Source: Candidatus Tantalella remota (GTDB lineage Bacteria > Omnitrophota > Gorgyraeia > Tantalellales > Tantalellaceae). From it: DNA of 64,000 bases. The DNA lies in the NCBI GenBank assembly GCA_030765685.1, contig JAVCCB010000015.1:8113-72112 (forward strand), given 5' to 3'. The notes under the pieces were generated by a model. That model was given only the letters and a program-made list of their open reading frames with translations, had not been told where the DNA came from and made no database searches. A program made the position numbers and the translations under genes. Below are positions 15,001 through 58,980 of this stretch, one piece after another (within the stretch, counting starts at the first letter, position 1; each line of letters opens with the position of its first letter).

Positions 15001-18000
15001 ACAGTTGAACCTCGACGCGGCGGTGGCTGCGGGTAAGGAAGATGTTCGGCTCCTGAGGGAGAAACCTCTGGCGGCAGAGAAGCAAGAGATGACCGACCTA
15101 TTAGTTGAAGAAGCAAAAAAGACGGCACGTGCCACTGAAATTCGCCGGGAAGTCCAGGACCTCAGTGATAAAAAACAGAAAATGGAAGCTGAACTGGATA
15201 AAGTCGCAGGAGCAAACAAGGCCGCTATGAACGAGTCTATACGAGCGGCTTTCCGGACCATAGCCAATGGCGGGTATGATCCGAATGATGACGCGGTTAC
15301 GAAGGCGATGGGGTTTCTCTCTCGTCTTCCCGCTAGATTTAATAACCGGATTTTGCGGCAGGTGGATATGATGAGCGTTCGCGCGGATATTCTGAAAGGA
15401 AAAGAAAGCATCAACAGGAAGGGGTTTATTGAAAAACTTCTGATGGATATATATTTCAGGGGAGAATGGAAGATGTTTTCATCCGGGCTGGATTCTTTGA
15501 GGGCGAATGCCGGTGAAGATACCATAAAGCTTAACGTCCTGGGCAGGGAAAGGGTGTTTGATTCGGCAGTACTTATCGATTATATCGTAGAGAACACGCC
15601 GGAAAGTGAGAGACCGACACTGACCGGGAAACTATCGGAAATAATGACCGCGGCCAGATTAGCCCGGAATCCTGTTCTGCAGGCGGAAGCGTTCGCGGGT
15701 ATTTACGGGACGCTTGAGCTTGAAGGGGACATCAAACTGACAGCGGATGGCAATTTTGCGGAAGGAGGTTCTATAAAAAGTGATGAAATTAAAAAGGATG
15801 TCCTCATACCGCGTGTGAAGAAGATCTTTGAAGAAAAACAAATGCCCGGTTCGGTAACCGGCGGAACGGACATGCCGGCTCTCCTCATATCATTCATGGA
15901 AAACATCAGGAAAAAGGGGACAAAATGGGATGATCTTAAAAGCTCTGGCAAGAGGGTGGAAAGAGTAGAACTTGTCATGGACCTGAACATAGAGATGGAA
16001 TCGCCCGACACGGAAACTGAAGGGATGAAGGGAAACGCCAGGGCCAGGTTCTATGGCGGTATTAGGGAGAGGGTCGGCAGTGCGACCGAAAGAATAGCAG
16101 TGATAGGGAAACTCGGAAATGCCGAAATAGAAAAAGAAGACCCCGACCCCGAGCAGATCGAGAAACTCGCTGAAGAACTCTTTGATATCGATGAAGGGTC
16201 TGATACTGCCGGATATTTTCGTGGGGTCGCCCGATACATTTCAGGCGTTTCCGAAACAGATGAGGCTGAAGGGCTAAAGAGGTTTGCCGTTATCGAGCCT
16301 CTTAAAAAATACCTCAAGTCTAATCAGGAAGACGAGACGGCGCGTGTGTTTCTGGCAGAAGTCTACGTGGATCTTCACTCTGAACTTTTTGGGGGCAACC
16401 CACGGGGGATCGCGACCCATCTGGAAGTCTCTGAATATTTTTCATCACTATCCGACTTTTATCTGGAAAAGTCCCGGAAAAGCAGGGCTGAAGGTGATAT
16501 GGACGAGGCAGAGAGTAGCCTGGAGAAGGGTGCAGCCTATATCGTGAGGGCTATCATGTCCAATCCCAGAAACGGTGCTTTGGTGGTTAAGAGGATGTAT
16601 ATATCTAAAGAGATGGGACGCGATGATCTGGTTGTGAGTGATGCTGAATGGGTTTTAGCAAGGGTGGAAGTGTCGAAGGAAAAGAGGATGTTCAATCTGA
16701 CAGTGACGAAGGAAGACAAAAAAAACACGAAATTATTGCTTGCCGACATGGAGGCGAAAAGGGGGGATCTTGAAGCCGCGCGGAGGCGACTTGGAAAAGG
16801 AATATGGTTCACGGTAGGGAGCCGGATGATCACATCGGGTTCCGCGGCAACAGGGCTTGTCATGGCGGCAGTTTCCGCTCTTTCAGGATATCTTGTGCCG
16901 TTGGCTCTAAGAACGATCTTGTCCTATGCTTCGAAGTTCGCTTTTGAAGGTGCGCTTTCGGCCGCGGCGTCATTCACAGCGGGTAATCTTTATGTGATGG
17001 GCATAGTAGGATTGTTGACGCTGGGGATACTCGCATATCGTTTTACCAGGGACAGGGTGTCTGTCGAAGTGGCAGCGAGGATGTACCTGGTATATACCGG
17101 CCTTGGAAACCAGCAGATGGCGGGAAGATATGAAAAATATCTTTACCGGATCATGGGAACGGCTAAGGATTCACTTGAACCGGAAATCCTTGAAAAGGTG
17201 GCGGACGCGCTCGAGGCCGGAGGAACCTACGAAAGTCTTTCGGGTGCTATAACTCTCAGGGAGACTAGGAAGGCTTCGTCTTTTGTCGATAATGACGCTG
17301 AAGACAGGAAAATAGCGGATCTGCGCGTCAGGCTTTCCTCGATGAAGAAACCCTGGAGTGTTTTCAAGCCCCGGACATGGAAAATACGGAGATCTGTCCG
17401 GGAAACGGAAAAGAAGGAAAGGCGGGAGAACCTGTCCAGCGCGAAAAAGACGTCGCCGGACCTGACAACCATTGCAAATGACGCCTTGATCAGGATGAAT
17501 ATGGAAGATTTGAGAGCTCTTGAAGCGAAGCAGAGCCGCTTTAAGAGATTGGGTGGAGTATGGTTGATAGGGAGGTTTCTTAAGGATGTTGCGCCCGGGG
17601 TAGCCGCACTTTATGTCAGCAACTCCGAACTGCTCTTTGAGATGTTCGAAAGCGAAACGGATCCGGCAAAGCGGGATGAAGCCGTGTTGGAACTTGAAAA
17701 AGCACGCGATGTATTCAAAGGAGAGCTTTCATCAGAGCATCGGGATCTTCTTTCCAGGATAAACGTTAGTATCGGGGACGATATGGCTAGGGAAGGGCGC
17801 TATGATGAGGCGCTTGAAGTTTACGAGATAGCGGTTGGCACAGATACGGGCAATCCCGACAATGCTAAGGCTTATCTCGGAAAAGCGGACGTTCTCGAGA
17901 AAATGGGCGCTGATCCTTTGTATGTAGCATCCGAGATGGAAAAAGCCCTGCAAAAAGACGCCGCTCTTGACGGGGATGGAATGGTTTATTCGAGAAGACT

Positions 18001-21000
18001 TTTTGATATATATGTGTCTCAGGGAGATGTGGAGGGGGCCGGGCGTGCTACCAGGGGGATGGAGGAAGTGCTGTTGGACCGGGAACTTGAGACATTACGG
18101 CAACTTATCGAGAACATAGGTTCCGAGGCTGAACAGCTACAGAGGATAGTAAATAGGGGGGTACGCATCAGCGAATTGGAAAAGAAGATCGCCGCTGCGG
18201 AAACCCGATATAAGGAAGCCACGGAGGGCTTATCTCCGGATGTGGTCAGCGGCCAGGTTGTTTTTTCATCTGAGATAACGGATATAAGTATAGATAAGCA
18301 GGAACTAAAAAGAAGAAAAGACCTGCTCGCCCGTCAGAAAGAGGAATACCTTGCTTTGATAAAACAAAGGGAGATCTTTAACCAGGTCATAGGCAACGCC
18401 AGAGGAAAGCCTGCTGACCAGGGTATAAGAGATCTGGAAGTTCTGGATGAACTTCTTGATAAGGACCTCAGGTCTGACAGGAACATAATCGTGCCGATAC
18501 ACCTCGCCTTAGCTGAACTTTATAGAGATACGGGAGAACATGAAAAAGCGCTGGATCACGCCAAAAGAGTATATATAAGCTATTTAGAAATAAGCCCCGC
18601 CGGATTGCCATCTTCCGGGCTCTCGCAGGAGGAATCTATATTGCTGACCAAAGGGCAGTTGCTATATGCGGATCTTCTTCTTGGCACAGGGAAGAAAGAG
18701 GATCTGGATGAAGCATTCCTTCTGCTAAGACGAGCTTCGGAGGAAAGCGCCTCGCTTAACGAAAAGTTTAGGGACACGCGTGTCTCGGATGAAGCTATTA
18801 ATGTATTTAAGAAGGCCCTGAGAGCGATGTCGGAATCGGATATCACAGATACCGAAAGGTCCGGGCTCCGGACAGGCGTGTTTTATGTGTTTGCCAAGCT
18901 GCCGTCACCGGCGAAGGATACAGAGGCGGCCGGTATGGTGATTAATCTGGCCATGGAAAACATTGATAAGGAGGCAAGAGACTTTATCACGGCCGTGCTC
19001 TTGGAAAAGAATGAAAGTGACGCCGTGAAAACGTCTTTTCTGCAAGTTATGGCGGAAAAGACGTCCGCAAACGGGGACGTCAGAGAAAGCCTGGAAAGTT
19101 TCCGCGGAGTCCTGGATTCTGCGGAATTTCAGAATGCCACGACCGGCAAGCTCAGGGCAAGCGCCGGTCTTTTATCAGGGATGCTCGAAGGGAAAGGCAG
19201 AAAAGCGAGAGCGCGTATACGCGAAGCTGTAAAGACCGACGAAAGTCTTGAAACCCTTTCTTATATCGCGCACCTTCTGGCCGGTACATACGCCTGGTGG
19301 AATCCGGCGGGATGGATTTCCCGTTGGAGGACAAGCAGGGATCCGGCTGTACGGGCGCAGAACCGGGTCGTGAGGGCAGGTAAAGCTTTGGCTACCGGCT
19401 GGCATCACACGGCGGTAAGACATTACGAAACGGCGACAAAGATGGACGATTCTCTGAAGGGGGATGAAACACTGCGCAATGCCCTTGCCGGCGCGTACCG
19501 TAACGATAAGGGAAGTTTATGGAAGAGGCTAGTCAGGGCCATGGGAAGACGTCTGGACCGGCAGGAAAAAGCTGTGTCATGGAGAATAGACCGTTTGAAA
19601 AAGGCCCTGGATACGGCGGTTGATGAGACCGTAAAAGCCGATATCAAAATGGAGCTTGTGGGTGCCATGGAGGGGATGGCGGATGTTATCCAGGCACGAC
19701 TCGAAAACCCGGGCCTATTGGGCAGGATGATATATTCAAGACGCGAAAAAAAGCGTAACGAATACAGGGCGGAAAGTTCAAAGATAATGACAGAGGTCGG
19801 TGATCTTTATCTCGAGATCATGAGGTTTCAGCAGAAAAATGGAGAAATCGATGAGGCGAGGGACTCTTATGAAGAAGCGAAGAAAGCTTTTCGAAAAGCA
19901 GTGAAATTCGACGGTAGAAACCGTCAGGCGGAAGAAAGAATTAAGTCTCTAGGAGAGGAGATGTCTGTTGAAAAAAGCGCGGAGGAGCTTGTGAAAGAAG
20001 CATCGGTGGAACTTGAATCAGGAAATGTCGAACAGGCGTTATCCCTTATCGATTCCGCGGTTAAAAAGGATGAGAACGCTGAAGTCCAGGATGTTTCCGG
20101 TCGGATAGAGAAGCTTAACGCGGCTTTAGACGCGTTAATGGATTATTTTGTGAGAATGAGTTTTCAGGCGGATTACACTAAGGCGAATGAGCCTGAGCAG
20201 AAAGTGAGCGTAAGGACAAGCGCGATGAACGGTCTTTCGGGCACAGCCACAAAGGTCCACGGTGAGCGTGAAGAGATCGTTGGTAAATGGCTGGAGTTCC
20301 AGACTGATATTTCGGAAGATGCCCGCAGGTCCGCGTTAGCGGCCCTGAGTGTTATGACGCTGAATAATGCTGGTAATGAAGTGCTTCAGGTAGCGGATGA
20401 TGTAAGGGAAGCTTTTCTGGCAAGATCCATGGCTCTGTCAAGAAAGTTTCTTGATGAAGGCAAGGCCGCGCAGGCTAAGTATCTTCTGGGGATACTTGAA
20501 ACGGCCGGGGATGCGGACGCAGACAGAGCAGCGCAGAGAGATTTTTTGATGTTGCGGGCGGATTTTTATCTGTTTGCGGGTGATGGAGATGTCTCGGTAA
20601 AAGATATTTCGGCAGCGGTAGGGAAAACGAAGATAAATGATGTTCTTAATGACAACCGGAGAGGGGAAAAAGAAAGGGCGATGCTTGCTATTGCCGTGGC
20701 GTCGTCGTTTGCTGATAAAGCGGGCAGTCTGAAAGGTTTGAGAGGGCGTGAGGATGAACAGAAAACTGCCATAGATAAAGCCATGATCAAGCTCAGTCGA
20801 GCCATAGATCTTGATCCCTCTAATTCAAAGGCGTTGGATATTTTGGCAGGACTTTATGATGAGAAGATGCTATCAGACAAAAAGTTCTTTGATAAAAACA
20901 GCAGACAGATAGAGAAGTCAGTAGGGGGTATCCCCGAGAAAAGGGCATCCCTGAACGTTCTCAAGACGATCTCGGGATTATCCTTGAGCGGGGAGATCTC

Positions 21001-24000
21001 AGGTCAAAAGGCCGATATAGCTTCCGGGGCATTATTAAAGCTACAGGATGTGATAAACGTTGATGAGCTGTCGGGAGAAAACGCTGCGGATTTCATGAGA
21101 AGTTTATTGCCGGGGCTACATGCTGCTGCTGTTGCTTCCGATGACGCGGATTCGGCAGTTAAGATGGCCGGTATAGCTGAAACAGTGAACAGTATAAGAG
21201 AAGAGTATGCAAAGGATGAGATATACAGATACAATGCGGATATTGATATTGTATGCAGGCTTGTTTCCGCTTATCTTTATACTATTGCCGGGCAGGTGGG
21301 GAAAGCCTCGGATATCCTTAGTGATATACACCCAATAAGGGCGCCAGACAGGGCTGAATGGTGGTTTGTTCAGCTGCGTATCGCTTTAGACGGAGAGGAT
21401 ATAGACCGAGCCGAGTTCGCCTTGAAAGAAATAGCGAGATTTAATCCCAGCCTTACGCCTATTGCCAGAAAGATCCTCGCTGAAAAATATCAGGCGGGCG
21501 CCGCTTCCATGACATCAAGCGCTAAATTGATGTATCTTAAAAAAGCTGTTATGCATTGGCCGGATTTTGAACAGGCGCACCTGGATCTGGCCGCGGAGTA
21601 CGACAGTATGAAGAAGGGGGACGATGCCCAAGAGCACCGGTCGGATGCGCGAAGGGCAGAACAGTATGCTAAGAGGAACGGGCGGTCCAGAATGCCGTCG
21701 GCGTTTAGTATGACGAAGAAAAGTGAATTTATAGAGCATGTATTTCGCGCCCCGGTTGTCGAACAGAGTAAGCATTTCTGGATACCGATGCTGGGGCTTA
21801 TGGGCGTGGTATTTTTGAACTGGGCTATGAATTTTCTGCCAATGGGGAGTCTTTTATCCGATACGGTAATTAAGTTGGGATTTGTTCTGGCACAGATATT
21901 TTTCAGTCGCGCTTTTGTTAACAGTCACATAGACAAAAGGCTTACGCCGGGAATCGTATCGCTCGCTAACATATCTATGAATGCGGGGCTTCTGGCGATG
22001 GAGATGTCACCCATATACCACATGATGGCCTATTATGTACTTTCCATGGTAGTGCATGCCTTGATGAACGTAACGGTTTTCAGCGTTGACCGGATGATGG
22101 GGCGTAGGGCCCTCGGTTACGCGACAATAGAGACGGAGGGAAAGCCTGCTGAGGTAAGTGAGGACGCGGTAGCACCGGTGAAAAAAGTGCGTCAAGCGGA
22201 ACCGGGCGAGAAGGATTTTATAATTCTGGCCTCGGCATATAATGAGGGCGCGGTTATACAGGGGGCACTGGAAAAAGCCAGGCAGGGCGGTTACATCGAC
22301 AGTCTGGTGATAGTCAATGACGGTTCTACAGATGATACGGGCAGTATTCTTGACGAGTACGCGCAGTATGGACTCGTTGTCATACATAAAGAGAATACCG
22401 GAAAACCCGATTCGATGAAACAAGTTCTCAGACAGCTTCAGCAGAGTGGTGAGCTTCCGGAATTTGTAGTTACTACTGATGCGGATTCATTCTTTGCCGT
22501 TAAAACAGATACCGGAGTATCTGTAATGAACAGTTTGTCCGAAGCCGTGGAATATTCTCGCGGGAAAGGACTGTCAGCGGTCGCGCTGGATATCATGCCG
22601 ACTATGGAGAAAGGGTCTTTTGTTGAGCATATGCAGACATTAAAGTGGCGTATGACTAATAATTACCTGAGATACGTAGGGGGTAGTGTCGCCGGCGCCG
22701 GTGGACTGTATAACTCACAGCGGTTACTTTCAGCTATGGAGCAGCATTCAGGACGTTTCAGCGCGGAGGACACGGAACTCGTAAGTATAATCAGAAAAGA
22801 AGGCGGCAGTACGGGGAAATACAGAAAAGGCGTCGAGGTGAGGACAGATATCCCCAGGACCATGAAGATGTTTTTTAATCAATACAGGAGGTACGGACGC
22901 GGGTTTATAGAGCAGTTCAAGTTGAAGGATTGGCGAACGTCGTCGGCGGTCCTTTTTGGTCTAGTGCTGGGTATTTTTGCCGTGTACTATTATCACATTT
23001 CTTTAGGGCCAGGGGCGCTAGGGTTGATAGTTTCGGCGGGGTTGGTGCCCAAATTCGCGGCTATCATATATATGGCTTCCATGATCCCGATGATACCCGT
23101 TATTGTGAACATATGGCGGGACAGAAATATGTCTATTTCCCGTAAAGTCGCACAAACTTTATATGCTCCGGTATATCCGGTATTTGAAACTCTTATGTTG
23201 ATCGTGGGGACTTTGGCGGCTATAGCGGATATGGCGAAAGAAAAGCTCACTAAAAAGGCGAAAGCTCCGGCGGCGAAACCCGCGCCGACAGTGCCTGCTG
23301 TCGTAATCGTGGGTGTTGTGGATGGAGATGAAGAGGATATCACGCGATTGAACGAGCAAAACCCCGGTATCGAATTTTTTGCTGTCGATCGTGCAGGTAC
23401 GGAGACTATGACGGCTGTCATGGAATCTATGGCAGGTCCCCGAACCCGGTTTCTTGTGGATATGTCGCCGGACGTTCTTAGCGGTAATATCGGCAGAATA
23501 GTGAAAGACGCCAGGATACAGGCGTTCGCGAATGAATACCCGTATCTTGCCGGTCTTGATTCGGCATCAGTCGCGGCTTTGCAGGATGCCGGAGCCAGAG
23601 TGGCCTTGAACGTAATTACCGGGGGGCTTCCCGATGAAGCGCCGGTCAACGATATGTTGGGAGAGCTTTTGGCGGCGTACAAGCCGGGGGCTGAAGCTCC
23701 GGCCGGTACTGAGCTGACTTCTGAGGCGCAGGAAACTCTGGTACGTCAGGACGTGGAAGCCGAGAGTGCCGTAAGAAAAGCCGCGAGTAAAGGCGAGCCG
23801 ACAGAAGCCGCCATGGTTACGGCGAAAGGCCTGCTTGCGAATATGCGGGACTTTATAGCAAGTGTTAAGCCTGGTGATGAGCCCGATGTTTTGGATAGAC
23901 ATGAGGATATAGCTATGGCTCAGACGACAGAAGACGATCTTCTCGGCCTTCTTGGGGCAGTGGGCACTGCTGATCCGGCGCTCGGACCCCAGACAGTTGT

Positions 24001-24619
24001 TATAGACGCGAGACGTTCTACGGGACTCAATGCTTCAGAGATGTTACCCGCGCTTGATCATTATGCCGCGAAAGACGCTAAGCTGAATATATGTGTAATT
24101 ACAGATTCCGGTACCGAGATCGCCGATAGGATACCCGCGGGAAGGACGAATATGTTCGAGGTGTCGGCAGCTGAGCTAAACGGTTACGCGGCTGATATGG
24201 CTGAAGGCACGCGAGGGTATATAAAAGCAGTTACCGGAGTGGATGTTCCGCTTGCCTCGATCGGGGTCGCTACAGGTATGGCACATGAAAATGATGTAGT
24301 AAGTCACTTGAATATAAACAAAGGTGAAAGTGCCAACTTTGTCCTTATCGACAGGGATGTTATGGTTCCTGGTCCGGAAGGGGAGCAGATCAATCGGCTT
24401 ATGCCGAGTATGGTAGCCATGGGACTTTTAAAACGCGTATCGGATCCGAGGAAAGCCCCCAGTATAGTTACCGTAGGATTAAGCGGGAACGACATAGACA
24501 GCTTGAAGAGCAGGATAATAGACCTCTTTGTTACTATGGTCAGGATATCCCGCCTCAACATAGGCGAGGAGATCCGCCAACAGATAAACGCCATTACCAA
24601 AACCGCCGTTGCCCTCTAA
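2..24619 (+). CDS. Giant multidomain membrane protein, 5'-partial (>=8190 aa in window). Contains a PPP-type metallophosphatase, a SecA-like ATPase motor, TPR-like helical repeats, two TM clusters and a C-terminal GT2 synthase-like module.
   Basis: One uninterrupted + frame from nt 2 to TAA at 24617-24619. The first in-window start is TTG at 47, but the frame stays open to the window edge. ORF1 lacks the TM-anchor leader seen at the N-termini of ORF2 and ORF3, so the real start is probably upstream. Glu/Asp/Lys-rich coding composition throughout; alternate frames close quickly. Confidence 0.9.
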   Translation, partial: KHKGTLIEKEAVFHELWENNLKEKHGTLKAHQLASAMQSLNTEFREEGQTLTRYHLAQVTSDLTAAELQSLLAEDRGAIRELIGAELGPVARSAIERYEGLVQDQARIQLAQAKAEAEARSHKIAREKAREAKKGLTESEIGEAADRIVDRLIAEGRTSTEDIDEYIRAQEKSYARTSKASQPWHYIDDIAREEGMLPAVRIKLLVEIFVGVKQRLAAHNQKAKAAAVEKARIAKAEAAKAEKAAPAAERVVSLAEKMEQKMKDIKKRQDDIRKKKEKRAQAEKKARRVAAVGDIHGNLSKLREILRELTGKGKKRADKIVFCGDYMDRGASGIAVVEELMKLQADGNEAEFVMGNHDMMFLMAMLAGDSTAFYNWLRNGGVEVMKELGISQEEAMDNISNPRKLLDLDKSGRLKKIMGWMVENLQLYHVDENGMLYLHAGLPVNSNGQLTLEYGGKRGLEALDKMQEDLRKDMKNLAEGREAESDIFRNLGGKDSPLWVRGWEENLKNREQVKGLCDQLGVNGIVFGHTRQDELLNIDGMIFGIDQKIFGDEGGILFVEEEVFKWKSMAVAGMKTVVIGGIKGGQYAELDAESDNLTNEIGLMEKELSIEEEALAEMLAEKERLEKEAVEVEKKAAREEVTEEQVKLDTALNAFTDQEMTDFIEFTDGWTSADRLWLIEELSIRASPAEGLGVRFKQLSPVGVHTMVALVEYLDADKKVVGSRIVKRAESGVSDDKAKEDQLANQYEMGKRVSWSARTYEVVRRSGMPLLVMAEQVQPASDYARNDSQVAEVREALVRVLDTMYDDEEGHFTITDTQDESRLMDNIGVVTGSSGTVVVKMIDMGNVTETSESRDAAKERILARLDAELVETQAEKEAAEQIVLAKSGITEMMKALTDPSISAERAAELRAELNDRLKAMETAIALARSNLGEMPDGKVKAQFLKDIAALETDLAYIQDYQPEIHLQKAAQRRIEENLKGKKTENLIAIAKGQNLDARELARTALVLLLIDGGVDLPEEADVLLKDKPGQVLFIEAYMNADQGQRRIIDGILESALLEKKGTEVFKGAVDVTRSVVQRLNESILDKEKDLRKRLDEMRGKGDAEAQPIALSGQARDSVEIEAELEKQRAILQGLKKRLIHLADNKSLWDEDITSYEFSDLKDLISKTGRQLDSAMGKCMDDVRSRVVDLRTSIPWREIETTPVGQKSQVIEHEGRFILISTAELNGYKESLINAEKEMQLEMICTRLDVAEKMRELRSFRNILNMGKKKKTGHAIKVILERWAEVLRQAGVPEASIKEVEKHISRFSLRKAESIIEELQELTTEFQSTAGITGMELIKNHVGALVFELKKSVTPGTIGSDVGEVTDENLMKTNREVTKEFISALGILKEDERLAGIIDQKKLDECNRLSGEILKEIEYQIKTKKDRSGQITSKTGKLLGLMKNMCYGRSVEMIVDILKSEMKDAEITQAKLSEVFGGLGITGRKKEQSINSVLVESLTNEDRFANLAKEISNYIATGLVGTDQFEKFFGESDQVKGALGDISVAVRVGEIIREKVRGADGRGRESSSDNLEKRLNKKFDDLDARRKLAAWYQLAAITTEGKSPFVQQVEAGFFMADSFFVDIATGAGKTLAFPLPNIMNTARGLNSVHLVTDDYFTERDFRETRYLYEMMGYSVDYMGGNEKSVKKASERIEKNDVVIMSYSALSFTCLEAVGRKALPENQEWFKLLKQTRLTFDECDVAPYLSDFIIAAQQNRVSVREYVRYLALIKTVNKLQKEGQLKKIISQLERNLIAVKAVAEDEAAQTEQAEQIEKLAKMLGLKKGAVAVAEGRLSIESKEGKRELRPEDLSKPVSLEIEGQTFVLAHSKESGFVVKRTELIGEEVKDARGAMIDTTSKTATVDDGTWEVVSDMLKKVSSELSEMFSGIEKESFAKDEFLDCVKALYIDKLGVNYVLEYMDERASKPIILNERDGEIVIEDTDGKEYPAEFQTSLQEDGSFRVTYRGEEKALLNEDFFKDEEGEVRGDQDQKVIINIGEKRYRVRRAEKGGYRLQEVSMEVVLVDEQTSRRQGGQRKDRFHTFYEMKHQLGEGDMPEVRPGNKSTEFLSFTDIVDFVDSVGGASGSVATAAYVMNGLFGEKSNGVVRMNPAFSKKGPDRMPIFITSDRVQWDMALNKIKDIYTASPGAAMILYYDDIYQAEAFQVELEKMIESEKLADTAGGEITIQLFKEEGAKENEFVEKAGKRNTITLSDAKLGRATNVILSEIVGFIAKHGAAALTRLLRRKKLGSEEYDALFLREWAEDAKTDIDEVKKELAKEGYSAEEVDVNLEKLKKGESVNAVFLHVLKKTIDKMNGINEEVKGLTDLLTDENGIFFMSDYGKRAAKWKEIEAYMSKLGAGKESEVWRIVKQKYCDGLFLIDLSPDLSDQGKEQKFGRAKRQGDTGSVQPFYSLQKGRKLYGMVEKMYSSQYNKDLTPEQREAGNEKFEEFEENIEVIEKLQERIIQKGRFGKDISDKDMEDLVRLQRYFNDVLREVRTGLQKRRDDGRIKRAKRDRATQRLLNEVRDLPLVFNEKVRNNQETARRWLVERVDSILDLYMNDMSQAIDDSGVVDLEELLGVIEEHFHVDLGMENLKSFQVALEGKNARELSTVRQDLKSGLLEALYSMGSVTLKEGSGELLSGNISARLELDDEGKLNVEGMEHIHPDGKRVEIGKDLYRVIYEDDGSMVVDGLGRRLKFTHVYGTQVVELEGGFQAAVTELYSEGLDRLKTEVIQESREKGPEGVQADRGDIGLTKAAIKESQKRFKDKRDKAVDYATEEGREQLKKASGKIDKKLDGMTDALSDQRTEAHDQREALKEEGKLKAVVIEKKVTVRRGLMKLGEDEAGDVKVGIRAPKEVRSGGEDISGEAQAQVMVAESEAPSGVRYSVSIDFAETVEDAKLESRDAEKARKIEKAVEDQKKDVEAEDESGKETARSHEEGMHVTPSGADVFVTVEKEKGAPLSDAESIQGIAGGAGALPPRKLGAPFGMVIMTTGDTLEGLNSAERQEIATALREKFSGSVPKGQNLYISFDGLGEGSLDEATGRISPGFTGVKIFDGTSFQTLSRVREEAQKDEAPSQERMEEILGLAGEKGKRVFRKKVGETNFLVTVADDGVTYVRELGPDVYEQTRREILRANSVLSAADADSVNAGLRPEEYMLNARGVFIQTGGEAKIPPVVDLVDVIAKNNPEKEKMERLPLTKETGLPLRGWKGENFTGKMQFVGRKLAVPVEWVKWKAIGFGRWCIKKKDRVKYRFGLARKGKNPVSSVGWGVLRIMTLPVSIGEFLVRDALRKFSLWGQKRKIAYRRTLERSKDRYRRGPRYNALMYHLSKVSPEKKVVKALAKTAIALIDLFTAKRDITVIGTSLMMSLFYVAAFVGGLVYVLLWQLPKMILKLFLYHSWHYPYAKVSGWMEKRVAQKEKLPERDDVIKMRAPAAVREGRLTDEEAVTEAETLTGRKLKTADRTVVEGDVGGYDVSTTPFFVHGKTHSGRVLQIAKLLKYLSQADLYDTHPLFKGTYSRIADVLFEMSEDAEKTGRKEEAEKLRLNALNYAKIAVAVNRDDMDSEALQGILAYSLGDKDTAKKIFARVIKKGAPRNDYMSMVCALQGKMLEEAGDHRAAAAAYNKARLSEVFVLGEKISMAESKARCMEKVKAKPEKDEETLEGMPSKGKVPAGKKFSMKELFNKKTQTVIMVVTLIVVTLALLKVAPLILLAGVIKGLPLIGGIGAGIESIAAGISLGQLFTSIAGMKALMGISGGLYTVGMLTSLVTRFALKPMAVGAWRKARDLVTDPFRIRRALRNEINAVKRTPDKADPRIELIKAYELLGEKRKARKLLNKTAGMVRTGRLAPGEEVKFVEFLMDKGEKKTAEELFLITYARAAPEDRERFMDAVPVLLRGRLALQKEPVDVVRMRGEPEDFIEIALYCANQVLALDEDNTEALLVKLEALAGKYAKEKNMEVLGEYTDVLEKLAGPDAVLDTGQVKRLESVKVEFNVGDGVSRVQADEVKKISDAKDVKEVVAEEEPLEPKIYSGSEADSKRRNDLENKQKGYARGIFAVFNSLFRKNLNAEERLELAEIYAKDGQYARAIRQLNKAKTLSPEDMSKAAKLRVFCTLKMIEKPRWNPTRVFTRYWTLNRSLKRLTALGGDNVLWAQWVASTQPVSFFGMLRGVDPVAAENAFADIGNAYRAAPEDMTGESEKSILESGLRVLVSSRRKNEATAAAVQKILDSGDIPEDSELFKKASENLENKEGDIARKAPGRFSTVPLRFRLWDDNSKHINGIDDKLADERRNKKGEKEHNPKYERNLKKREKLENKRHAIEKDNAEHERSILRRYTLYMKGKTALPGVLSRVVESGRFKDFMSTLAGRDDLTPEKFRMELDNMSRLNDADSAKDFLEVVFTEMWLSNGFGRDYNADNPPVGVVTLGGGIMKYCERLIEMYNKPGNSYFRGTLIEAMRKISKYREFGVLEGGQYDRIPVMGEVIRLLSANAAKDEAMEDLIRELTTDAMKERGKLLGDAKKEKNAVKKRKLEVRASDYLEDPGTVFGGLLRFYRAGALVTGLDGEQRNARMEPVFTLVSAWYGSAAASALRAMIKRAVAEEEDQAVLIRKLENILSDIDFTGNGKSLVKRLLGKQYLSPEDKITLLSNCGDILKTGEKLRRVMEMAIPGVSSGKEYLYVLKKLKEFLKRSNDSDITSSRIRELSDEVLLPLPPDTPEVLSVKIDIIALVLDKRKDITASDRSGLDKTFGELRSSLAKKLDERRANEEDGEVRATLMEMRGLLKASEIYEKNGEFDKAEEVLKRAIGLSNALFEKNMELKKKSKPILTITDDFKSTASELAERMTGLLRKRGKNYEAEMMRGSGYKLLAGYEIAVEGVPAGEYLKKAREALNNADKLKPGQKEVSLGRMEVDSLSLQITMDRSQEFSARHKEESEKLEKLEKEIKDLRETISKAEVKRAADIEQAQLNLDAAVAAGKEDVRLLREKPLAAEKQEMTDLLVEEAKKTARATEIRREVQDLSDKKQKMEAELDKVAGANKAAMNESIRAAFRTIANGGYDPNDDAVTKAMGFLSRLPARFNNRILRQVDMMSVRADILKGKESINRKGFIEKLLMDIYFRGEWKMFSSGLDSLRANAGEDTIKLNVLGRERVFDSAVLIDYIVENTPESERPTLTGKLSEIMTAARLARNPVLQAEAFAGIYGTLELEGDIKLTADGNFAEGGSIKSDEIKKDVLIPRVKKIFEEKQMPGSVTGGTDMPALLISFMENIRKKGTKWDDLKSSGKRVERVELVMDLNIEMESPDTETEGMKGNARARFYGGIRERVGSATERIAVIGKLGNAEIEKEDPDPEQIEKLAEELFDIDEGSDTAGYFRGVARYISGVSETDEAEGLKRFAVIEPLKKYLKSNQEDETARVFLAEVYVDLHSELFGGNPRGIATHLEVSEYFSSLSDFYLEKSRKSRAEGDMDEAESSLEKGAAYIVRAIMSNPRNGALVVKRMYISKEMGRDDLVVSDAEWVLARVEVSKEKRMFNLTVTKEDKKNTKLLLADMEAKRGDLEAARRRLGKGIWFTVGSRMITSGSAATGLVMAAVSALSGYLVPLALRTILSYASKFAFEGALSAAASFTAGNLYVMGIVGLLTLGILAYRFTRDRVSVEVAARMYLVYTGLGNQQMAGRYEKYLYRIMGTAKDSLEPEILEKVADALEAGGTYESLSGAITLRETRKASSFVDNDAEDRKIADLRVRLSSMKKPWSVFKPRTWKIRRSVRETEKKERRENLSSAKKTSPDLTTIANDALIRMNMEDLRALEAKQSRFKRLGGVWLIGRFLKDVAPGVAALYVSNSELLFEMFESETDPAKRDEAVLELEKARDVFKGELSSEHRDLLSRINVSIGDDMAREGRYDEALEVYEIAVGTDTGNPDNAKAYLGKADVLEKMGADPLYVASEMEKALQKDAALDGDGMVYSRRLFDIYVSQGDVEGAGRATRGMEEVLLDRELETLRQLIENIGSEAEQLQRIVNRGVRISELEKKIAAAETRYKEATEGLSPDVVSGQVVFSSEITDISIDKQELKRRKDLLARQKEEYLALIKQREIFNQVIGNARGKPADQGIRDLEVLDELLDKDLRSDRNIIVPIHLALAELYRDTGEHEKALDHAKRVYISYLEISPAGLPSSGLSQEESILLTKGQLLYADLLLGTGKKEDLDEAFLLLRRASEESASLNEKFRDTRVSDEAINVFKKALRAMSESDITDTERSGLRTGVFYVFAKLPSPAKDTEAAGMVINLAMENIDKEARDFITAVLLEKNESDAVKTSFLQVMAEKTSANGDVRESLESFRGVLDSAEFQNATTGKLRASAGLLSGMLEGKGRKARARIREAVKTDESLETLSYIAHLLAGTYAWWNPAGWISRWRTSRDPAVRAQNRVVRAGKALATGWHHTAVRHYETATKMDDSLKGDETLRNALAGAYRNDKGSLWKRLVRAMGRRLDRQEKAVSWRIDRLKKALDTAVDETVKADIKMELVGAMEGMADVIQARLENPGLLGRMIYSRREKKRNEYRAESSKIMTEVGDLYLEIMRFQQKNGEIDEARDSYEEAKKAFRKAVKFDGRNRQAEERIKSLGEEMSVEKSAEELVKEASVELESGNVEQALSLIDSAVKKDENAEVQDVSGRIEKLNAALDALMDYFVRMSFQADYTKANEPEQKVSVRTSAMNGLSGTATKVHGEREEIVGKWLEFQTDISEDARRSALAALSVMTLNNAGNEVLQVADDVREAFLARSMALSRKFLDEGKAAQAKYLLGILETAGDADADRAAQRDFLMLRADFYLFAGDGDVSVKDISAAVGKTKINDVLNDNRRGEKERAMLAIAVASSFADKAGSLKGLRGREDEQKTAIDKAMIKLSRAIDLDPSNSKALDILAGLYDEKMLSDKKFFDKNSRQIEKSVGGIPEKRASLNVLKTISGLSLSGEISGQKADIASGALLKLQDVINVDELSGENAADFMRSLLPGLHAAAVASDDADSAVKMAGIAETVNSIREEYAKDEIYRYNADIDIVCRLVSAYLYTIAGQVGKASDILSDIHPIRAPDRAEWWFVQLRIALDGEDIDRAEFALKEIARFNPSLTPIARKILAEKYQAGAASMTSSAKLMYLKKAVMHWPDFEQAHLDLAAEYDSMKKGDDAQEHRSDARRAEQYAKRNGRSRMPSAFSMTKKSEFIEHVFRAPVVEQSKHFWIPMLGLMGVVFLNWAMNFLPMGSLLSDTVIKLGFVLAQIFFSRAFVNSHIDKRLTPGIVSLANISMNAGLLAMEMSPIYHMMAYYVLSMVVHALMNVTVFSVDRMMGRRALGYATIETEGKPAEVSEDAVAPVKKVRQAEPGEKDFIILASAYNEGAVIQGALEKARQGGYIDSLVIVNDGSTDDTGSILDEYAQYGLVVIHKENTGKPDSMKQVLRQLQQSGELPEFVVTTDADSFFAVKTDTGVSVMNSLSEAVEYSRGKGLSAVALDIMPTMEKGSFVEHMQTLKWRMTNNYLRYVGGSVAGAGGLYNSQRLLSAMEQHSGRFSAEDTELVSIIRKEGGSTGKYRKGVEVRTDIPRTMKMFFNQYRRYGRGFIEQFKLKDWRTSSAVLFGLVLGIFAVYYYHISLGPGALGLIVSAGLVPKFAAIIYMASMIPMIPVIVNIWRDRNMSISRKVAQTLYAPVYPVFETLMLIVGTLAAIADMAKEKLTKKAKAPAAKPAPTVPAVVIVGVVDGDEEDITRLNEQNPGIEFFAVDRAGTETMTAVMESMAGPRTRFLVDMSPDVLSGNIGRIVKDARIQAFANEYPYLAGLDSASVAALQDAGARVALNVITGGLPDEAPVNDMLGELLAAYKPGAEAPAGTELTSEAQETLVRQDVEAESAVRKAASKGEPTEAAMVTAKGLLANMRDFIASVKPGDEPDVLDRHEDIAMAQTTEDDLLGLLGAVGTADPALGPQTVVIDARRSTGLNASEMLPALDHYAAKDAKLNICVITDSGTEIADRIPAGRTNMFEVSAAELNGYAADMAEGTRGYIKAVTGVDVPLASIGVATGMAHENDVVSHLNINKGESANFVLIDRDVMVPGPEGEQINRLMPSMVAMGLLKRVSDPRKAPSIVTVGLSGNDIDSLKSRIIDLFVTMVRISRLNIGEEIRQQINAITKTAVAL
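860..1650 (+). other. Calcineurin-like / PPP-family metallophosphoesterase domain (ApaH/PrpE-like) inside ORF1
   Basis: Ordered signature motifs: GDIHG (878-892), GDYMDRG (971-991), GNHD (1064-1075), then LHAG, WVRG and FGHTR downstream. This matches the PPP motif series GDxHG / GDxxDRG / GNHE / HGG / RG / GH. Confidence 0.75.
2050..2600 (+). other. Possible atypical protein-kinase-like segment in ORF1 (weak)
   Basis: Hinge-like LLVMAEQV, catalytic-loop-like DTQDESRLMDNIGVV (D...N) and DFG-like KMIDMGN about 25 aa later (2431-2545). No clear glycine loop or VAIK lysine was found, so this is tentative. Confidence 0.2.
4750..6800 (+). other. SecA-like ATPase motor module embedded in ORF1 (NBD1 DEAD motor, preprotein-crosslinking-like segment, NBD2)
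   Basis: Walker A ATGAGKTLAFPLP (4868-4906). Motif-Ia-like GLNSVHLVTDDYFTERDF...LYEMMGYSVDYMGG (4941-5040) parallels SecA GKGVHVVTVNDYLAxRDAE...LYEFLGLTVG. DEVD-like box FDECD (5201-5215). A GMTGTA-like GGASGSVATAA follows, and a motif-VI-like AKLGRATNVIL (6749-6781) parallels SecA NMAGRGTDIVL. Order and spacing fit SecA NBD1-PPXD-NBD2. Confidence 0.6.
10200..11440 (+). other. Transmembrane helix clusters in ORF1 (about 10200-10310 and 11180-11440)
   Basis: Long hydrophobic stretches: SLFYVAAFVGGLVYVLLWQL, and TVIMVVTLIVVTLALLKVAPLILLAGVIKGLPLIGGIGAGIESIAAGISLGQLF...GGLYTVGMLTSLVTRFAL. The second is GxxxG-rich. Confidence 0.6.
16805..17050 (+). other. Second TM cluster in ORF1
   Basis: Hydrophobic stretch GLVMAAVSALSGYLVPLALRTILSYA...AAASFTAGNLYVMGIVGLLTLGILAYRF. 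Confidence 0.55.
21770..23240 (+). other. Membrane-embedded family-2 glycosyltransferase (GT-A, processive-synthase-like) module at the C-terminal end of ORF1
   Basis: ILASAYNEG (about 22215), VIVNDGSTDDT (22308-22340), TTDADSFF (22471-22494), an AED (TED-like) motif, and QYRRYGRG (22879-22902) as a QxxRW-like motif. Flanked by multi-helix hydrophobic blocks (21775-22080 and 22925-23240), as in BcsA/HAS/NodC-type synthases. Confidence 0.7.
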
Positions 24620-24922: not shown

Positions 24923-25876
24923 ATGGCGAGACCGTTGAGGATAGAATATGAAGGAGCAGTATATCATGTAACCTCAAGAGGTAACGAAAAGAAGGATATC
25001 TATAAATCGGATCGGGATAGAGAGAGGTTTTTGGGATATCTTGAGATAGCGCATGAAAGGTTTAATATAATAATTCACGCGTTTTGTTTGTTGTCCAACC
25101 ACTATCATTTAATTGTAGAAACCCCGTGTGCTAATCTATGCAGGTTCATGCAGTTTTTAAATTCTAGCTATACAATGTATTTTAATACAAAAAGAAAGAG
25201 AAGCGGGCATCTGTTCCAAGGGAGATATAAGGCCATTCTGGTGGACAAAGACAGCTATATGCAGGAATTGAGTCGTTATACGCATTTGAATCCGATAAGA
25301 GCAAAGATAGAGAAACGTCCTGAAGATTATAGATGGAGCAGTTATAACTATTATATTAAGGATGGAAGCAAACCGGAGTATCTGGATACAGATTTCACGT
25401 TACAGTATTTCAATAATAATAGGAAAAGATACAGGGAGTTTGTCGAGGCGGGGATGACGGGGAAAACGAAGAATGTGTTTGATGAGATTAAGGCAGGATT
25501 TATTTTGGGGGATGATGATTTTGTTGAAAAAATAAAAGAGAAATATTTACAGGAAGAACAAAGACCTGAAGATCTTCCAGAACTACGAAGACTAAAAAAG
25601 AAGTATATTACCAAAGATGCAATATTGAAGGTTTTGGAGAAGGAAGCAAAAAGGGAGAAGTTAACAGCGTACTATTTGCGAAAACACACAGATGAAACAT
25701 TGCAGGGGATAGTCAAGCTGGCATACAGGGAAAAGCGCAGCAGTTCGTGTATAAGTAAAACAGTTTCAAGAATAGAAGAAAAACGACGTAAAGATAAGAG
25801 TTTTAATAAGAGGTTGGAACTTCTCGAGGAGCAAATGTCAATGTCAAGGTCTGACCCCAAAGCGGGAGGTACCTGA
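24923..25876 (+). CDS. IS200/IS605-family Y1 (HUH) transposase, RayT / REP-associated tyrosine transposase type, with a long Lys/Glu-rich C-terminal extension
   Basis: 317-aa ORF with a strong RBS. Motifs AVYHVTSRGN, HUH motif HYHLIVETP, and RYTHLNPIRAKIEKRPEDYRWSSYNYY, which carries candidate catalytic tyrosines. REP-like palindromes lie downstream in the same intergenic region. Confidence 0.85.
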   Translation: MARPLRIEYEGAVYHVTSRGNEKKDIYKSDRDRERFLGYLEIAHERFNIIIHAFCLLSNHYHLIVETPCANLCRFMQFLNSSYTMYFNTKRKRSGHLFQGRYKAILVDKDSYMQELSRYTHLNPIRAKIEKRPEDYRWSSYNYYIKDGSKPEYLDTDFTLQYFNNNRKRYREFVEAGMTGKTKNVFDEIKAGFILGDDDFVEKIKEKYLQEEQRPEDLPELRRLKKKYITKDAILKVLEKEAKREKLTAYYLRKHTDETLQGIVKLAYREKRSSSCISKTVSRIEEKRRKDKSFNKRLELLEEQMSMSRSDPKAGGT

Positions 25877-26544: not shown

Positions 26545-29500
26545 ATGGGCATCCTCAGAAAAGGGACTGGGCGACAGTCTCTACATACTGATAAGAGTGG
26601 CTACTCTGCTGCAGGGGTAAAAGCGGCGGATGAAATATATGGCGTGACGACTTGGAGAAGGCGTCATGCCTTTTTTATTAAATGTGTAAGTATTGTTGTT
26701 GCCGTTATTTTTCTGCATCAGCAGACAGGATGGGCCCAAGCGGGCAAACCTGTCTGGGCCAACGCTAAACCCTTAGCAAAAACCTACAATGAGCATATGA
26801 ACCTTAACGGGATAAATATTCCGTATGATGTCGCGAAGACCCAGGAAGTGTGCGTGAACCCGAGTGAGGATGTCATCATACACGTTCAGGACGCGCATGC
26901 TTCTCTTTCCGCGCAGCATTCCATCGTTAACCTTCTCGATTCCCTGGTGACCAATTATGATCTGAGGCTTATCGCTCTTGAGGGAGCCTCGGGGTATATC
27001 GATACGTCACTTCTTAAGACTTTCCCGGATAAAGCAATAAGGGATGATACCGCGGAGTTCATGCTTAAGGAAGGCCGGATGAACGCGGGAGAGTTCTTTG
27101 CCGTGACCAATGACGGGCCGGAAGTAGAGATATATGGTATAGAAAACGATGCTCTTTACCGTACCAATGTCGAAAGTTTCAGGAACGTGGCAAATCAAAG
27201 GGCGCGGCACGTGGCTGATGTAGAGGGAATGCTGGGGCAGCTGGAACTCTTAAGTGAAAAGATGTGTTCTGAAGAGCTTAATATGCTGAACAGTAATTCT
27301 GTTTTGCATCGCGACGGGCGTTTAAGTTTCACGGATCACTGGAAGCACATGATCTCCCTGGTGGAAAAGTATAACATAGATTTTTCCAGATATGGGGAGC
27401 TGAAAAAAATACTCATGTCCATAGAGCTTGAGGGAGAGATTAATTTTGCTAAAGCTAATCTGGAAAGAAGAAGGCTTATAGATGAGCTTAGCAGGGAGAT
27501 GGACAAGGAAGACCTCGAGCAGCTGGTACTCAGATCGCTCGCGTTTAAGCAGAATAATATTTCTCAGGGGGATTTTCACAGTTATCTGATCAGTCTGGCG
27601 GAAAAAGAAGGTATAGAAGCTGCCGGGTATGAAAACCTGATAAATTTCACACGTTATATAGCCATATACGAATCAGTGGAACTGTTCAAGCTGTATCGTG
27701 AGCTGGAATCTCTCGAAGACGCGGTGAGGGAGAGAATCTATCGCAATGACGATGAGCGTGAGATATATCATATGACCAAAATGATAAGATTGCTGAAGAA
27801 GCTATATAGTATGGAACTCGTTAATACGGAATACGTGTATTTGAGGGAGAACCTGGGCAGGGTGAGTGTGCAGGATAACGCCCGGTTTATAAGAGAAAAA
27901 TGTGATGAGTACACGGTGCCGATAGCCGGAGCATATGACCTGGGTATGATATTTGGAGACGCTGAAGGCGCTATGGATTTTTACAGGCAGGCCGAAGATA
28001 GGAACGCGGCTATGCTGGCAAACACTCTCAAAGCAATGCGTATGACCGGGAAACACGTGGCCGCGCTTGTCACCGGAGGATATCACAGCACAGGACTTTC
28101 CGAGCTGATGCAGCAGAAAAAGCTTTCGTATCTTGTGGTCATACCTAAGTTCGAAAGCGGCAAGGAGCGTCCCTATATTGCTATATTGACCAATAAAAAA
28201 CGTCCATACCAGGAGATCCTGGAAAGTGGTCAGTACCAGCTTGCCGTAGAAGCGTATTTTTCCGCTACCAAGGGTGATCTTTCACGCATGAAATCCTCGC
28301 TTTTTCACGCTCTCGGAGAAGCGGCTATAGAGGGTAAGGATATTGCCGCGATAAAGAGGATATGGGAGCAGGCGTACCGGGAGAGATACGAGACCATAGT
28401 ATCGGAGAAGCTGGATCAGATGACGTTTGCTCCGGTCACACCGGAAGCGTTCGTAAGTTTTCTCGCGAGGGTCGAGGCGCAAAGGGTCGGAGACGCCACC
28501 GTGATAGCTGACCGGACCGGCGACGGTATCACTTTTATCGCCCTGATAAGAGACGGTGAATATTACGAGTTTAATCCGGCTTCAAGGTCCCAGAGGGTAG
28601 TTGTCGCCAGAAGATTGGCTTTGCAGGAGACCAGTGCCTCGACAGCGGAGGAAGAGGGCGCTGAAGATTTCGCGAATGCCCTGCAGAAGATCAGATCCGA
28701 TGTGGCTGATATCAAGTCGATGCTAAGCAGCATCATAGATACACGCGAGGAACTGATAATACAACTGGAAGGAGTATCTCCGGCGGATATAATGGCCAGA
28801 TTGCAGGACCCCGCGAACACGACGGCAAAGGAAGTAATATCAAAACTGCGTGCCAAGCAGATCAACGTACCGGCTGACTGGGAGGGCGATGAGGAGATCT
28901 CAGAAAAAATAAACGTTCTTGTAGCGGATGTCAGGAGTTCAGCCGCCTACATAGCACGGTCAGAAGCGATCGGGGAGGATTCTGAGCAGGAACCGACGAG
29001 AAAGGCGGGGGCAGCGGAAGGCCTTTCGGAAGGGGCAGAAGAACGTGTTGAAGCGCAGCCAACACCCGATGCGGCTACAGCCGCTTACATAGAACGGTCA
29101 GAAGTGATCGGGGAGGCTTCTGAAAAGGAACCGCGTAGGAAGAGGGGGCCTCCGGGAAGTATGATGGGACTCTTGATGGTATTGGGGTTATCACTTTTTC
29201 TGAATATATCAAGTCCGTCATTGGGGAGGGCAGCTACTCCGGTAGCTCATCCGGGCGGAGCAGTACCGGAATTGGTCCAAAAAGGCAGCGATGCTATGAC
29301 ATCGCGCGTAAGGGCGACACGTGAATCTATAGCCAAGAGCAGGGGTGCCGGCGCCAGGAAACAGTTCGCTGCGGATAAACAGAAGATGCAGGACGCGATA
29401 GGCGAATACTTTGATAATTTGCGACAAACTGATTATTTCAAGGACAGGGCAGCGAGAATAGCGTCGGCCGGAGACGGCAGTGATCCTTTAGTGCTGGATA

Positions 29501-58855: not shown

Positions 58856-58980
58856 AGTACAGTAATTAGCCATACAAAAAGTAAGAATTTTCCGAACTGT
58901 TTGGTGATCTTAAAAAGGTCAAGAACGGGAAGGGATTCGTATACTCTGAGAAAGTCAAACCCTTTAATAAGTGGGAGTTT

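Follow-up and report, generated by a model that had tools for sequence, protein, structure and literature searches.

Hyaluronan synthases (HAS), chitin synthases, NodC, PgaC and cellulose synthase make up a membrane-integrated branch of glycosyltransferase family 2 (GT2). In HAS, the Trp of the QxxRW motif positions the acceptor sugar, and the WGTR gating loop precedes transmembrane (TM) helix TMH5 (PMC11750622). Chitin synthases and NodC carry the CON1 signature, consisting of QxxEY, (E/D)Dx and Q(R/Q)xRW (PMC5353729). A title cited in PMC8993221 ascribes a 'minimal cellulose-synthase-like fold' to PcManGT and connects the enzyme with N-glycan biosynthesis. Here we describe a GT2 module that resembles these enzymes, carried by a giant open reading frame (ORF1) of Candidatus Tantalella remota. 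The DNA analysed, which we call the window, is a stretch of 64,000 nucleotides (nt), positions 8,113-72,112 of JAVCCB010000015.1 on the forward strand.

To go by the available excerpts of the reports on them, the giant proteins of Omnitrophota have mostly been viewed as devices for attachment and cell-wall degradation; these excerpts stress GT5/starch-synthase and GT1 (West-Roberts et al. 2023, 10.1101/2023.11.21.568195; 10.64898/2026.06.07.730766). Within those excerpts of the two reports there is no mention of a HAS/chitin-synthase-like GT2 cassette, of the QxxRY / QxxKW variant described below, or of presence/absence of the cassette between homologues.

A GT2 module in a giant protein

ORF1 is one of three very large ORFs on the forward strand of the window, along with ORF2 and ORF3. 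The features of ORF1 that bear on the module are the following, with protein positions in amino acids (aa) and with helix and domain calls from hydropathy and AlphaFold2 (AF2), the latter scored by the predicted local distance difference test (pLDDT).

47..24619, forward strand: ORF1, giant, at least 8190 aa, listed TTG start at 47
21779..22108, forward strand: upstream hydrophobic block of four predicted helices, aa 7245-7354 (Kyte-Doolittle, AF2)
22157..23281, forward strand: GT2 cassette, aa ~7371-7745, made up of GT-A domain, interface helix and C-terminal hydrophobic helices
22214..22861, forward strand: GT-A catalytic domain, aa 7390-7605 (PF00535, PF13641, AF2 pLDDT >90)
22235-22246, forward strand: AYNE, aa 7397-7400, GT-A motif
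22319-22339, forward strand: DGSTDDT, aa 7425-7431, GT-A motif
22394-22405, forward strand: NTGK, GT-A motif
22478-22486, forward strand: DAD (DxD), aa 7478-7480, GT-A motif
22634-22648, forward strand: QTLKW, at the QxxEY position in the GT-A domain
22763-22771, forward strand: AED, aa 7573-7575, catalytic-base motif
22862..22918, forward strand: predicted amphipathic interface helix with QYRRY, aa 7606-7624 (AF2 helix, hydropathy)
22880-22894, forward strand: QYRRY, aa 7612-7616, at the QxxRW position, with Tyr for Trp
22931..23236, forward strand: predicted C-terminal hydrophobic helices, about three, aa 7629-7730 (Kyte-Doolittle, AF2)
23108..23143, forward strand: conserved loop NIWRDRNMSISR, aa 7688-7699, between the last two helices
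23282..24616, forward strand: C-terminal non-hydrophobic region of ORF1, 445 aa, aa 7746-8190, following the cassette

A first-pass annotation, made from the sequence alone, had proposed a processive-type GT2 polysaccharide synthase at 21770-23240. Our results confirm the observation and bear out its interpretation in part. These coordinates were accurate; they equal aa 7242-7731 and take in the upstream hydrophobic block and the GT module. The five motifs on which the proposal was built (AYNE, DGSTDDT, DAD, AED and QYRRY) are all in ORF1, in frame and in the claimed order (nt 22235-22894). A GAGG motif is also present in the GT-A domain, listed between QTLKW and AED. Active-site residues are present: the nucleotide/metal-binding D7425, D7478 and D7480, the catalytic-base D7575, and Q7612-x-x-R7615-Y7616.

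The GT2 identity holds firmly, given a PF00535 match above cut-off and 512 HMMER relatives. PF00535 scored 47.6 bits with the cassette alone (E 2.3e-12) and 46.7 bits with a query of 600 aa; the gathering cut-off is 23.3, and the alignment covers only profile positions 5-92 of 168. Chance arrangement of the motifs is ruled out by E-values of 1e-12 to 1e-141. We searched the window for a second GT2 module and found none; the cassette is the sole copy.

The module had been called the C-terminal membrane domain of ORF1. It is indeed the last membrane cluster, but not the C-terminus of the protein, since 445 aa follow it. This C-terminal region matched no Pfam or NCBIfam family. At the other end, the ORF1 frame runs without a stop from window base 2 to the TTG at 47, so that 8190 aa is a lower bound, and the ORF probably extends upstream beyond the window. 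Its Pfam domains, apart from GT2, are Metallophos (aa 273-515), SecA_DEAD (aa 1550-1694; 50.4 bits, cut-off 24.6) and many TPR repeats.

Placement within the GT2 family

By sequence profile and by predicted fold, the module belongs with the membrane-integrated synthase branch of GT2. The C-terminal half is the informative part, because the N-terminal nucleotide-binding half matches any GT2: in a profile search of the Protein Data Bank (PDB), it aligned with TarS, K4CP, GtrB, ArnC, DPMS and PcManGT. The C-terminal-half profile, run against the whole PDB, found solely chitin synthases and the cellulose synthase BcsA. With the full profile, hyaluronan synthases align from the DxD motif through the QxxRW helix and into the membrane helices.

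A profile of 22 modules gave stand-alone GT2s, one of them annotated Omnitrophica, at E-values of 1e-132 to 1e-112. At ~1e-40 it reached proteins with chitin-synthase Pfam domains (PF03142, PF01644) or with PgaC or cellulose-synthase-like names; the window cassette itself had no PF03142 or PF01644 match. Among NCBIfam models, PgaC_IcaA was matched by 22/22 members (best E 8.7e-22) and NodC by 15/22, all of these matches being far below the family cut-offs.

Predicted structure agrees in layout. We called helices from Kyte-Doolittle hydropathy and from the secondary structure of an AF2 model built on a 48-sequence alignment. The GT domain is followed by the amphipathic interface helix and then by predicted TM helices. 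The helix with QYRRY spans module positions 381-399 in the model, with a mean hydropathy of -0.81 and five charged residues. The C-terminal helices have Kyte-Doolittle peaks of 1.87, 1.98 and 1.84 and lie at module positions 404-427, 441-466 and 472-514; the upstream block has peaks of 1.26-1.63 and AF2 helices at 20-38, 42-69, 72-94 and 97-129. Values of pLDDT were above 90 for the GT domain and 84-95 for the last two helices, and dropped to ~50-65 in the upstream block and in the first of the C-terminal helices.

In a Foldseek search of the PDB with this model, the top 13 matches were hyaluronan synthases (E 9e-14 to 3e-9; 451-505 aligned columns), and chitin synthases and PcManGT came next; all top matches were GT2 enzymes. 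The earlier suggestion that the module resembles membrane-integrated synthases is thus borne out three ways, by the C-terminal-half profile, by the Foldseek ranking of HAS and then chitin synthases, and by relatives that pass PF13641 and PF13632.

Relatives and conservation

The 512 matches at E<=1e-3, the best at 6.4e-141, come from an exhaustive HMMER run over 1.84 billion cluster representatives. The best relatives are modules in very large proteins (P0003, P0004, P0005, P0006 and P0007). P0003 has 5782 aa, of which aa 629-1002 are 59% identical to ORF1 aa 7364-7738 by BLAST, and its cassette is above the cut-offs of both PF13641 and PF13632 (29 and 31 bits). P0006, of 7618 aa, bears the IMG name 'preprotein translocase subunit SecA/glycosyltransferase...'. 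The next tier consists of stand-alone proteins, mostly of 360-490 aa, with ~30% identity; of ten scanned, eight passed PF13641 and eight passed PF13632. Several GT2 copies can occur in one protein: P0007 (5394 aa) has three, at aa 3230-3608, 4054-4492 and 4945-5207, and P0010 has two.

Other searches found little. Among 185,579 species genomes the sole relative of the GT2 module was in a Candidatus Omnitrophota metagenome-assembled genome (L001), at 46% identity. A word-indexed protein search with the single sequence gave just two weak matches, phmmer with the module as single query had no significant PDB match (best E 0.019, to the N-terminal motif only), and distant blastn of the region against a phage collection gave no match.

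The DxD and catalytic-base aspartates, whose loss on alignment would have spoken against the GT2 proposal, survive in an alignment of 96 modules. Conservation there was 95/96 for N7399, 95/96 for D7425, 96/96 for S7427, 96/96 for D7429, 96/96 for D7478, 95/96 for D7480, 94/96 for D7575, 93/96 for Q7612 and 82/96 for R7615; G7550 and T7600 are also invariant or nearly so. The catalytic site appears intact, and nothing in these residues suggests a dead enzyme.

The Trp position of QxxRW is W in 90 of the 96 modules and Y in the other six, namely the window module and those of P0003, P0004, P0005, P0006 and P0009. All six QxxRY modules are from large proteins, and together they form the closest clade. 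At the earlier Q-x-x-[E]-[Y] motif these six have W, in the form KW in five and TW in one. Of the 90 QxxRW modules, 60 have EY at this earlier position and just seven have W. From the alignment, the QxxRY clade therefore appears to have swapped its two acceptor-site aromatics. Since the six sequences form one clade, the exchange counts as one evolutionary event, not six. Conservation of the Tyr within a clade of 39-59% identity argues for a functional variant rather than decay.

A second marker of the clade is the loop W-[RK]-[DS]-[RK]-D (aa 7690-7694), conserved in P0003-P0006, whose Trp is confined to the QxxRY clade. From its position, which is like that of the HAS WGTR loop, we infer that it may correspond to the gating loop of the synthases.

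Repeated transfer or single addition

On sequence and model, it is almost certain that ORF1 aa ~7371-7745 are a functional GT2 of the chitin synthase/NodC, HAS, PgaC and cellulose synthase branch. We put at about even the chances of the fuller reading, which is that the protein is an inverting membrane-embedded GT2 with repeated (processive or oligomer-forming) transfer coupled to the membrane.

Several results weigh against this fuller reading. In the Pfam scan that the first-pass annotation had proposed, PF00535 passed, but the two synthase-type families fell short: PF13641 scored 24.5 bits over profile positions 8-229 of 230, just below its cut-off of 27, and PF13632 scored 17.7 bits against a cut-off of 27. 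Both were absent at E<=0.01 with the 600-aa query and appeared with E-values of 3e-5 and 3e-3 with the 376-aa cassette. QYRRY, which had been called QxxRW-like, keeps the Q and the R, but the window departs from literal QxxRW in having Tyr for the Trp that positions the acceptor by stacking. The model is of low confidence in its TM region (pLDDT 50-65) and reaches whole-model TM-scores of no more than 0.46-0.53 to HAS, and the AF2 alignment was made from PgaC- and chitin-synthase-like relatives and may bias the model toward that fold. With ~3 C-terminal helices in the cassette, and none on the N-terminal side in its closest relatives, the count stays below the 2+4 of HAS; three helices are probably too few for a channel alone. 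Finally, PcManGT has the same minimal fold, is linked to N-glycans according to what is available of its description, and matches about equally well by target length (TMt 0.59).

The main alternative, less likely but a serious possibility, is a non-processive membrane GT2 that would add a single sugar to a lipid or lipid-linked acceptor at the cytoplasmic face, such as a polyprenyl-phosphate-linked glycan, a glycolipid or a ceramide-like lipid. The C-terminal helices would then be a platform that binds the lipid acceptor, with no channel. PcManGT is among the Foldseek matches, gives the longest N-terminal profile match of the membrane GT2s (E 9.5e-15), and is an instance of the minimal fold outside polymer secretion, as far as its citation in PMC8993221 tells. 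The small number of TM helices in the cassette and acceptor-site aromatics unlike those of polymer synthases are consistent with single addition, as are GT21 (PF13506) among the precomputed domains of profile neighbours and weak NCBIfam matches to polyprenyl-phosphate transferases, confined to the N-terminal half. However, PcManGT, GtrB, ArnC and DPMS all match the N-terminal half only, and the half that runs from ED through QxxR[W/Y] into the membrane matches only HAS, chitin synthases and BcsA. The best-matching curated families, PgaC/IcaA and NodC, are moreover polymer or oligomer synthases.

A NodC-like oligosaccharide synthase, with repeated transfer but a product that is short, of fixed length and not translocated by the enzyme, other parts of the giant proteins then exporting or using it, is decidedly unlikely, although by sequence alone it looks the same as the fuller reading. 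The NodC model was matched by 15 of the 22 profile members, the CON1 triad is common with NodC (PMC5353729) and the helix count is small, but the window sequence itself had no NodC match at E<=1e-3. Very improbable is a degenerate or purely structural GT2 remnant, without catalysis, in a rapidly evolving giant protein, for although domains in giant Omnitrophota proteins are highly divergent in the available part of 10.1101/2023.11.21.568195, the QxxRW Trp is lost and PF13641 and PF13632 are sub-threshold, all nucleotide-binding, metal-binding and catalytic-base residues are kept, and a Tyr shared by six sequences of 39-59% identity together with the W-[RK]-[DS]-[RK]-D loop is the pattern expected under purifying selection.

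If the module does carry out repeated, membrane-coupled transfer, we would expect the GT domain to be cytoplasmic and to bind a uridine diphosphate (UDP)-sugar. An N-acetylhexosamine (HexNAc) or hexose donor is likely, because the nearest curated families make N-acetylglucosamine (GlcNAc) polymers. D7575 would deprotonate the acceptor hydroxyl, and sugar would be added with inversion to the non-reducing end of a beta-linked glycan, whose terminal sugar would be held by Y7616 of the interface helix, possibly paired with W7534 of QxxKW. The growing chain would enter or cross the membrane between the cassette helices; speculatively, the four-helix block of the host protein, in a low-confidence part of the model, may help or supply missing helices. 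We would expect the giant protein to make an oligo- or polysaccharide that is secreted or stays at the surface, possibly with a role at the cell surface or in attachment.

A synthase-type GT2 that is catalytically intact and embedded in the membrane would mean, within such a protein, that the giant proteins may also build and possibly export a glycan. A protein class that is otherwise almost wholly without annotation would thereby gain a definite activity open to assay. In the conserved Trp-to-Tyr change, with the reciprocal Tyr-to-Trp change in QxxEY, nature has run an experiment on a residue that is considered pivotal for the synthases of hyaluronan, chitin and cellulose.

The module as a cassette

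Two homologues of ORF1 lack the module. ORF1 aa 5305-8190 have collinear counterparts in P0008 (2443 aa) and P0016 (2462 aa), which include the four-helix block and the C-terminal 445 aa, yet by BLAST skip aa ~7371-7745 exactly, so that the cassette is an indel. Right after the hydrophobic block, the alignment resumes with P0016 aa 2027-2461 against ORF1 aa 7744-8189. The block itself is homologous to P0008 aa 1818-1975 and P0016 aa 1855-2031, both without GT2, and the C-terminal region of ORF1 is homologous to the ends of P0016 (33% identity, 455 aa), P0008 and P0126. Among the cassette-bearing relatives, the 250 aa that precede the GT domain are free of hydrophobic segments (KD>=1.5) in P0003, P0004 and P0006.

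Because P0008 and P0016 keep the block and relatives of the cassette are without upstream helices, we assign the upstream block to the host protein and take the conserved unit to be the GT-A domain, the interface helix and ~3 helices. The first-pass annotation had hydrophobic helices flanking the module on both sides. Hydropathy and AF2 agree with it on both sides of the GT domain, but the upstream ones are part of the host backbone, not of the cassette.

P0008 and P0016 are complete genes on their contigs, each preceded by a large gene collinear with ORF1 aa 3217-5251. ORF1 aa 3217-8190 (nt 9695-24616) is thus represented by two consecutive separate genes in L007 (3-13615) and in L008 (2-10634); those in L007 overlap by 4 bp. 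ORF1 therefore corresponds to at least two separate genes in the P0008 and P0016 genomes, where the collinear genes are separate. Either the giant ORF1 is a fusion here, or it has been split in L007 and L008.

Elsewhere the cassette sits in a different position. A domain of ~570 aa starts P0003-7, P0009, P0032, P0038, P0058, P0092 and P0098, and is homologous to the N-termini of ORF2 and ORF3, not of ORF1. In P0003-P0006 and P0009 the cassette follows within a few hundred residues of this domain, and in P0007, P0032, P0038 and P0058 it is much further downstream. In a second subfamily, GT2 is fused to a different N-terminal domain or is encoded directly downstream of genes with that domain (L002). 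Presence/absence between homologous genes, together with the different position elsewhere, points to assembly of giant proteins by domain shuffling.

In L002 (967-9107), two large genes (1380 and 877 aa) are followed 20 bp downstream by the stand-alone GT2 P0027; the ~350-aa N-terminal domain of the two is fused to the same GT2 in P0017, P0021, P0028 and P0034, a fusion/fission pattern that connects the domain with the GT2. The idea that this L002/P0017-type domain is the ORF2-type domain was rejected by profile search.

We searched for repeats flanking the cassette, as footprints of recent insertion, and found short chance matches only. An extended hypothesis is that the cassette is a portable 'plug-in' synthase that moves among positions in giant proteins and works only where host helices complete the channel, with the swapped aromatics (QxxKW ... 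QxxRY for QxxEY ... QxxRW) reshaping the acceptor site for a polymer not made by known synthases, secreted at the predator-prey interface; giant proteins would then secrete polymers besides being degradative or adhesive. We consider this unlikely.

ORF2 and the rest of the window

Other features of the window are listed here.

24923..25876, forward strand: small ORF between ORF1 and ORF2, 317 aa, similar to Y1 (IS200-like) or REP-associated tyrosine transposases
26545..57873, forward strand: ORF2, giant, 10442 aa
26641-28260, forward strand: N-terminal domain of ORF2, aa 33-572, which precedes the GT2 cassette in the cassette's closest relatives
47539..48507, forward strand: region of ORF2 that had been called GH5, aa 6999-7321, with LFNEPE at aa 7170 and IAGEIG at aa 7261
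58885..64000, forward strand: ORF3, at least 1705 aa, exiting the window at its right end

The first-pass annotation had placed a GH5 hydrolase and nucleotide-sugar-type modules in ORF2. Neither found support from profiles. Aa 6999-7321 gave no Pfam match at E<=1 and, with phmmer, no PDB sequence match; the one homologue is without a Pfam domain. The AF2 model of this region has a pLDDT of 53 and weak Foldseek matches to TIM barrels (E 6e-5 to 5e-3), among them sugar epimerases, uroporphyrinogen decarboxylase (UROD), GH1 and GH5. A TIM barrel is plausible from the model, but the matches are to generic barrels and there was no HMM support for GH5. The supposed nucleotide-sugar modules (aa 7480-8100 and 8500-8850) likewise had no Pfam match at E<=1. 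Of the proposed pairing of synthase-like and hydrolase-like activities at this locus, the synthase half is supported, but the hydrolase half is without HMM support.

The sole clear Pfam domain of ORF2 is PPDK_N (nt 55036-56019). The hydropathy profile of ORF2 has many peaks, with ~50 windows above threshold, many of them overlapping. By eye, some stretches of aa ~7480-8850 (nt 48982-53094) look like a nucleotidyltransferase with a left-handed beta-helix, unconfirmed and with no Pfam match, and FHFHGQ recalls the HxHxQ of galactose-1-phosphate uridylyltransferase, again by eye, unconfirmed and with no Pfam match. HExxH-like strings, LVHETVHH and FHEWFHLQ (aa ~1130 and ~8940; nt 29900-29960 and ~53360), might be metalloprotease-like sites.

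The N-terminal domains of ORF2 and ORF3 (58885-60700 in the latter) share 36% identity over 605 aa and are paralogous. This shared domain of ~570 aa sits behind a hydrophobic anchor. It had no Pfam or NCBIfam match, and the ORF2 version had no PDB match.

The 317-aa transposase-like ORF matched PF01797 at 42.2 bits (cut-off 23) and NF047646 at 66.8 bits (cut-off 80). It is about twice the usual length, and the domain spans residues 6-139 only. Y1_Tnp genes are also found near stand-alone GT2 relatives in L002 and L004-L006.

The coding strand is strongly purine-rich across the window (1-64000), with a GC skew of +0.09 to +0.30 in every 2-kb window. AT skew is mostly positive and falls toward zero at the hydrophobic GT2 region (20-24 kb).

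Comparison with known systems

ORF1 and ORF2 match the giant membrane proteins of Omnitrophota, as the available part of 10.1101/2023.11.21.568195 presents them, in size (>8000 and >10000 aa) and in their many hydrophobic helices, and likewise in content, with divergent SecA_DEAD, TPR, PPDK_N and glycosyltransferase domains. The locus has an ORF of at least 7000 aa, many predicted TM helices and a divergent SecA_DEAD, the marks of that class.

The best structural matches of the GT2 model are Class I HAS, from Xenopus (HAS1; 8SMM/8SMN/8SMP) and from Chlorella virus (7SP6-7SP9). Shared features are the GT-A domain, the interface helix with Q-x-x-R-aromatic followed by TM helices, and a Trp-plus-basic loop before the last helix, a candidate parallel to the WGTR gating loop (PMC11750622). 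Identity to the module is only 12-17%, however, and HAS have two TM helices on the N-terminal side and four on the C-terminal side, with three interface helices, compared with ~3 C-terminal helices for the cassette. Motif by motif, HAS have GDDR, QxxRW and WGTR where the module has AED, QYRRY and WRDR; no literal gating-loop motif, whether FxVTxK of BcsA or WGTR / WGTSGRK of HAS, is in the module. HAS also differ in that the module is embedded in a protein of >8000 aa.

With chitin synthases and NodC, the window shares the order of the CON1 triad, at similar spacing, and the C-terminal-half profile matches the Candida, yeast and Phytophthora enzymes. The stand-alone relatives read QxxEY ... 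[EGD]D ... QRxRW. By contrast, the window reads QTLKW / AED / QYRRY, with two of the three motifs altered and the aromatics exchanged.

The TED (aa 341-343) and QRGRW of BcsA (4HG6, 4P00) align to AED and QYRRY (E 5e-4), with D7575 aligned to BcsA D343. Unlike BcsA, the module is without a PilZ domain, a BcsB partner and FxVTxK, and has a much smaller number of TM helices; in the fold search, HAS and chitin synthases rank well ahead of BcsA. The poly-beta-1,6-GlcNAc synthase PgaC/IcaA (TIGR03937) was the most consistent curated-family match among the 22 members, yet the window reaches 41.3 of the 422.3 bits set as cut-off and aligns only to the N-terminal third of the model (positions 43-140 of 407), and no PgaD- or PgaB-like partner was seen.

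PcManGT of Pyrobaculum calidifontis (6YV7) is alike in having a GT-A domain followed by C-terminal TM helices, with no N-terminal TM helices (Foldseek E 5.7e-9, TMt 0.59; profile E 9.5e-15). It differs in that the sequence match covers profile positions 9-230, ending before the ED / QxxRW / membrane part.

We do not file the module as a chitin synthase, NodC, PgaC, HAS or BcsA, because its motifs depart from QxxRW and CON1 and its scores lie below the family thresholds. The description that fits best is a variant within the synthase-type branch of GT2, housed in a giant protein.

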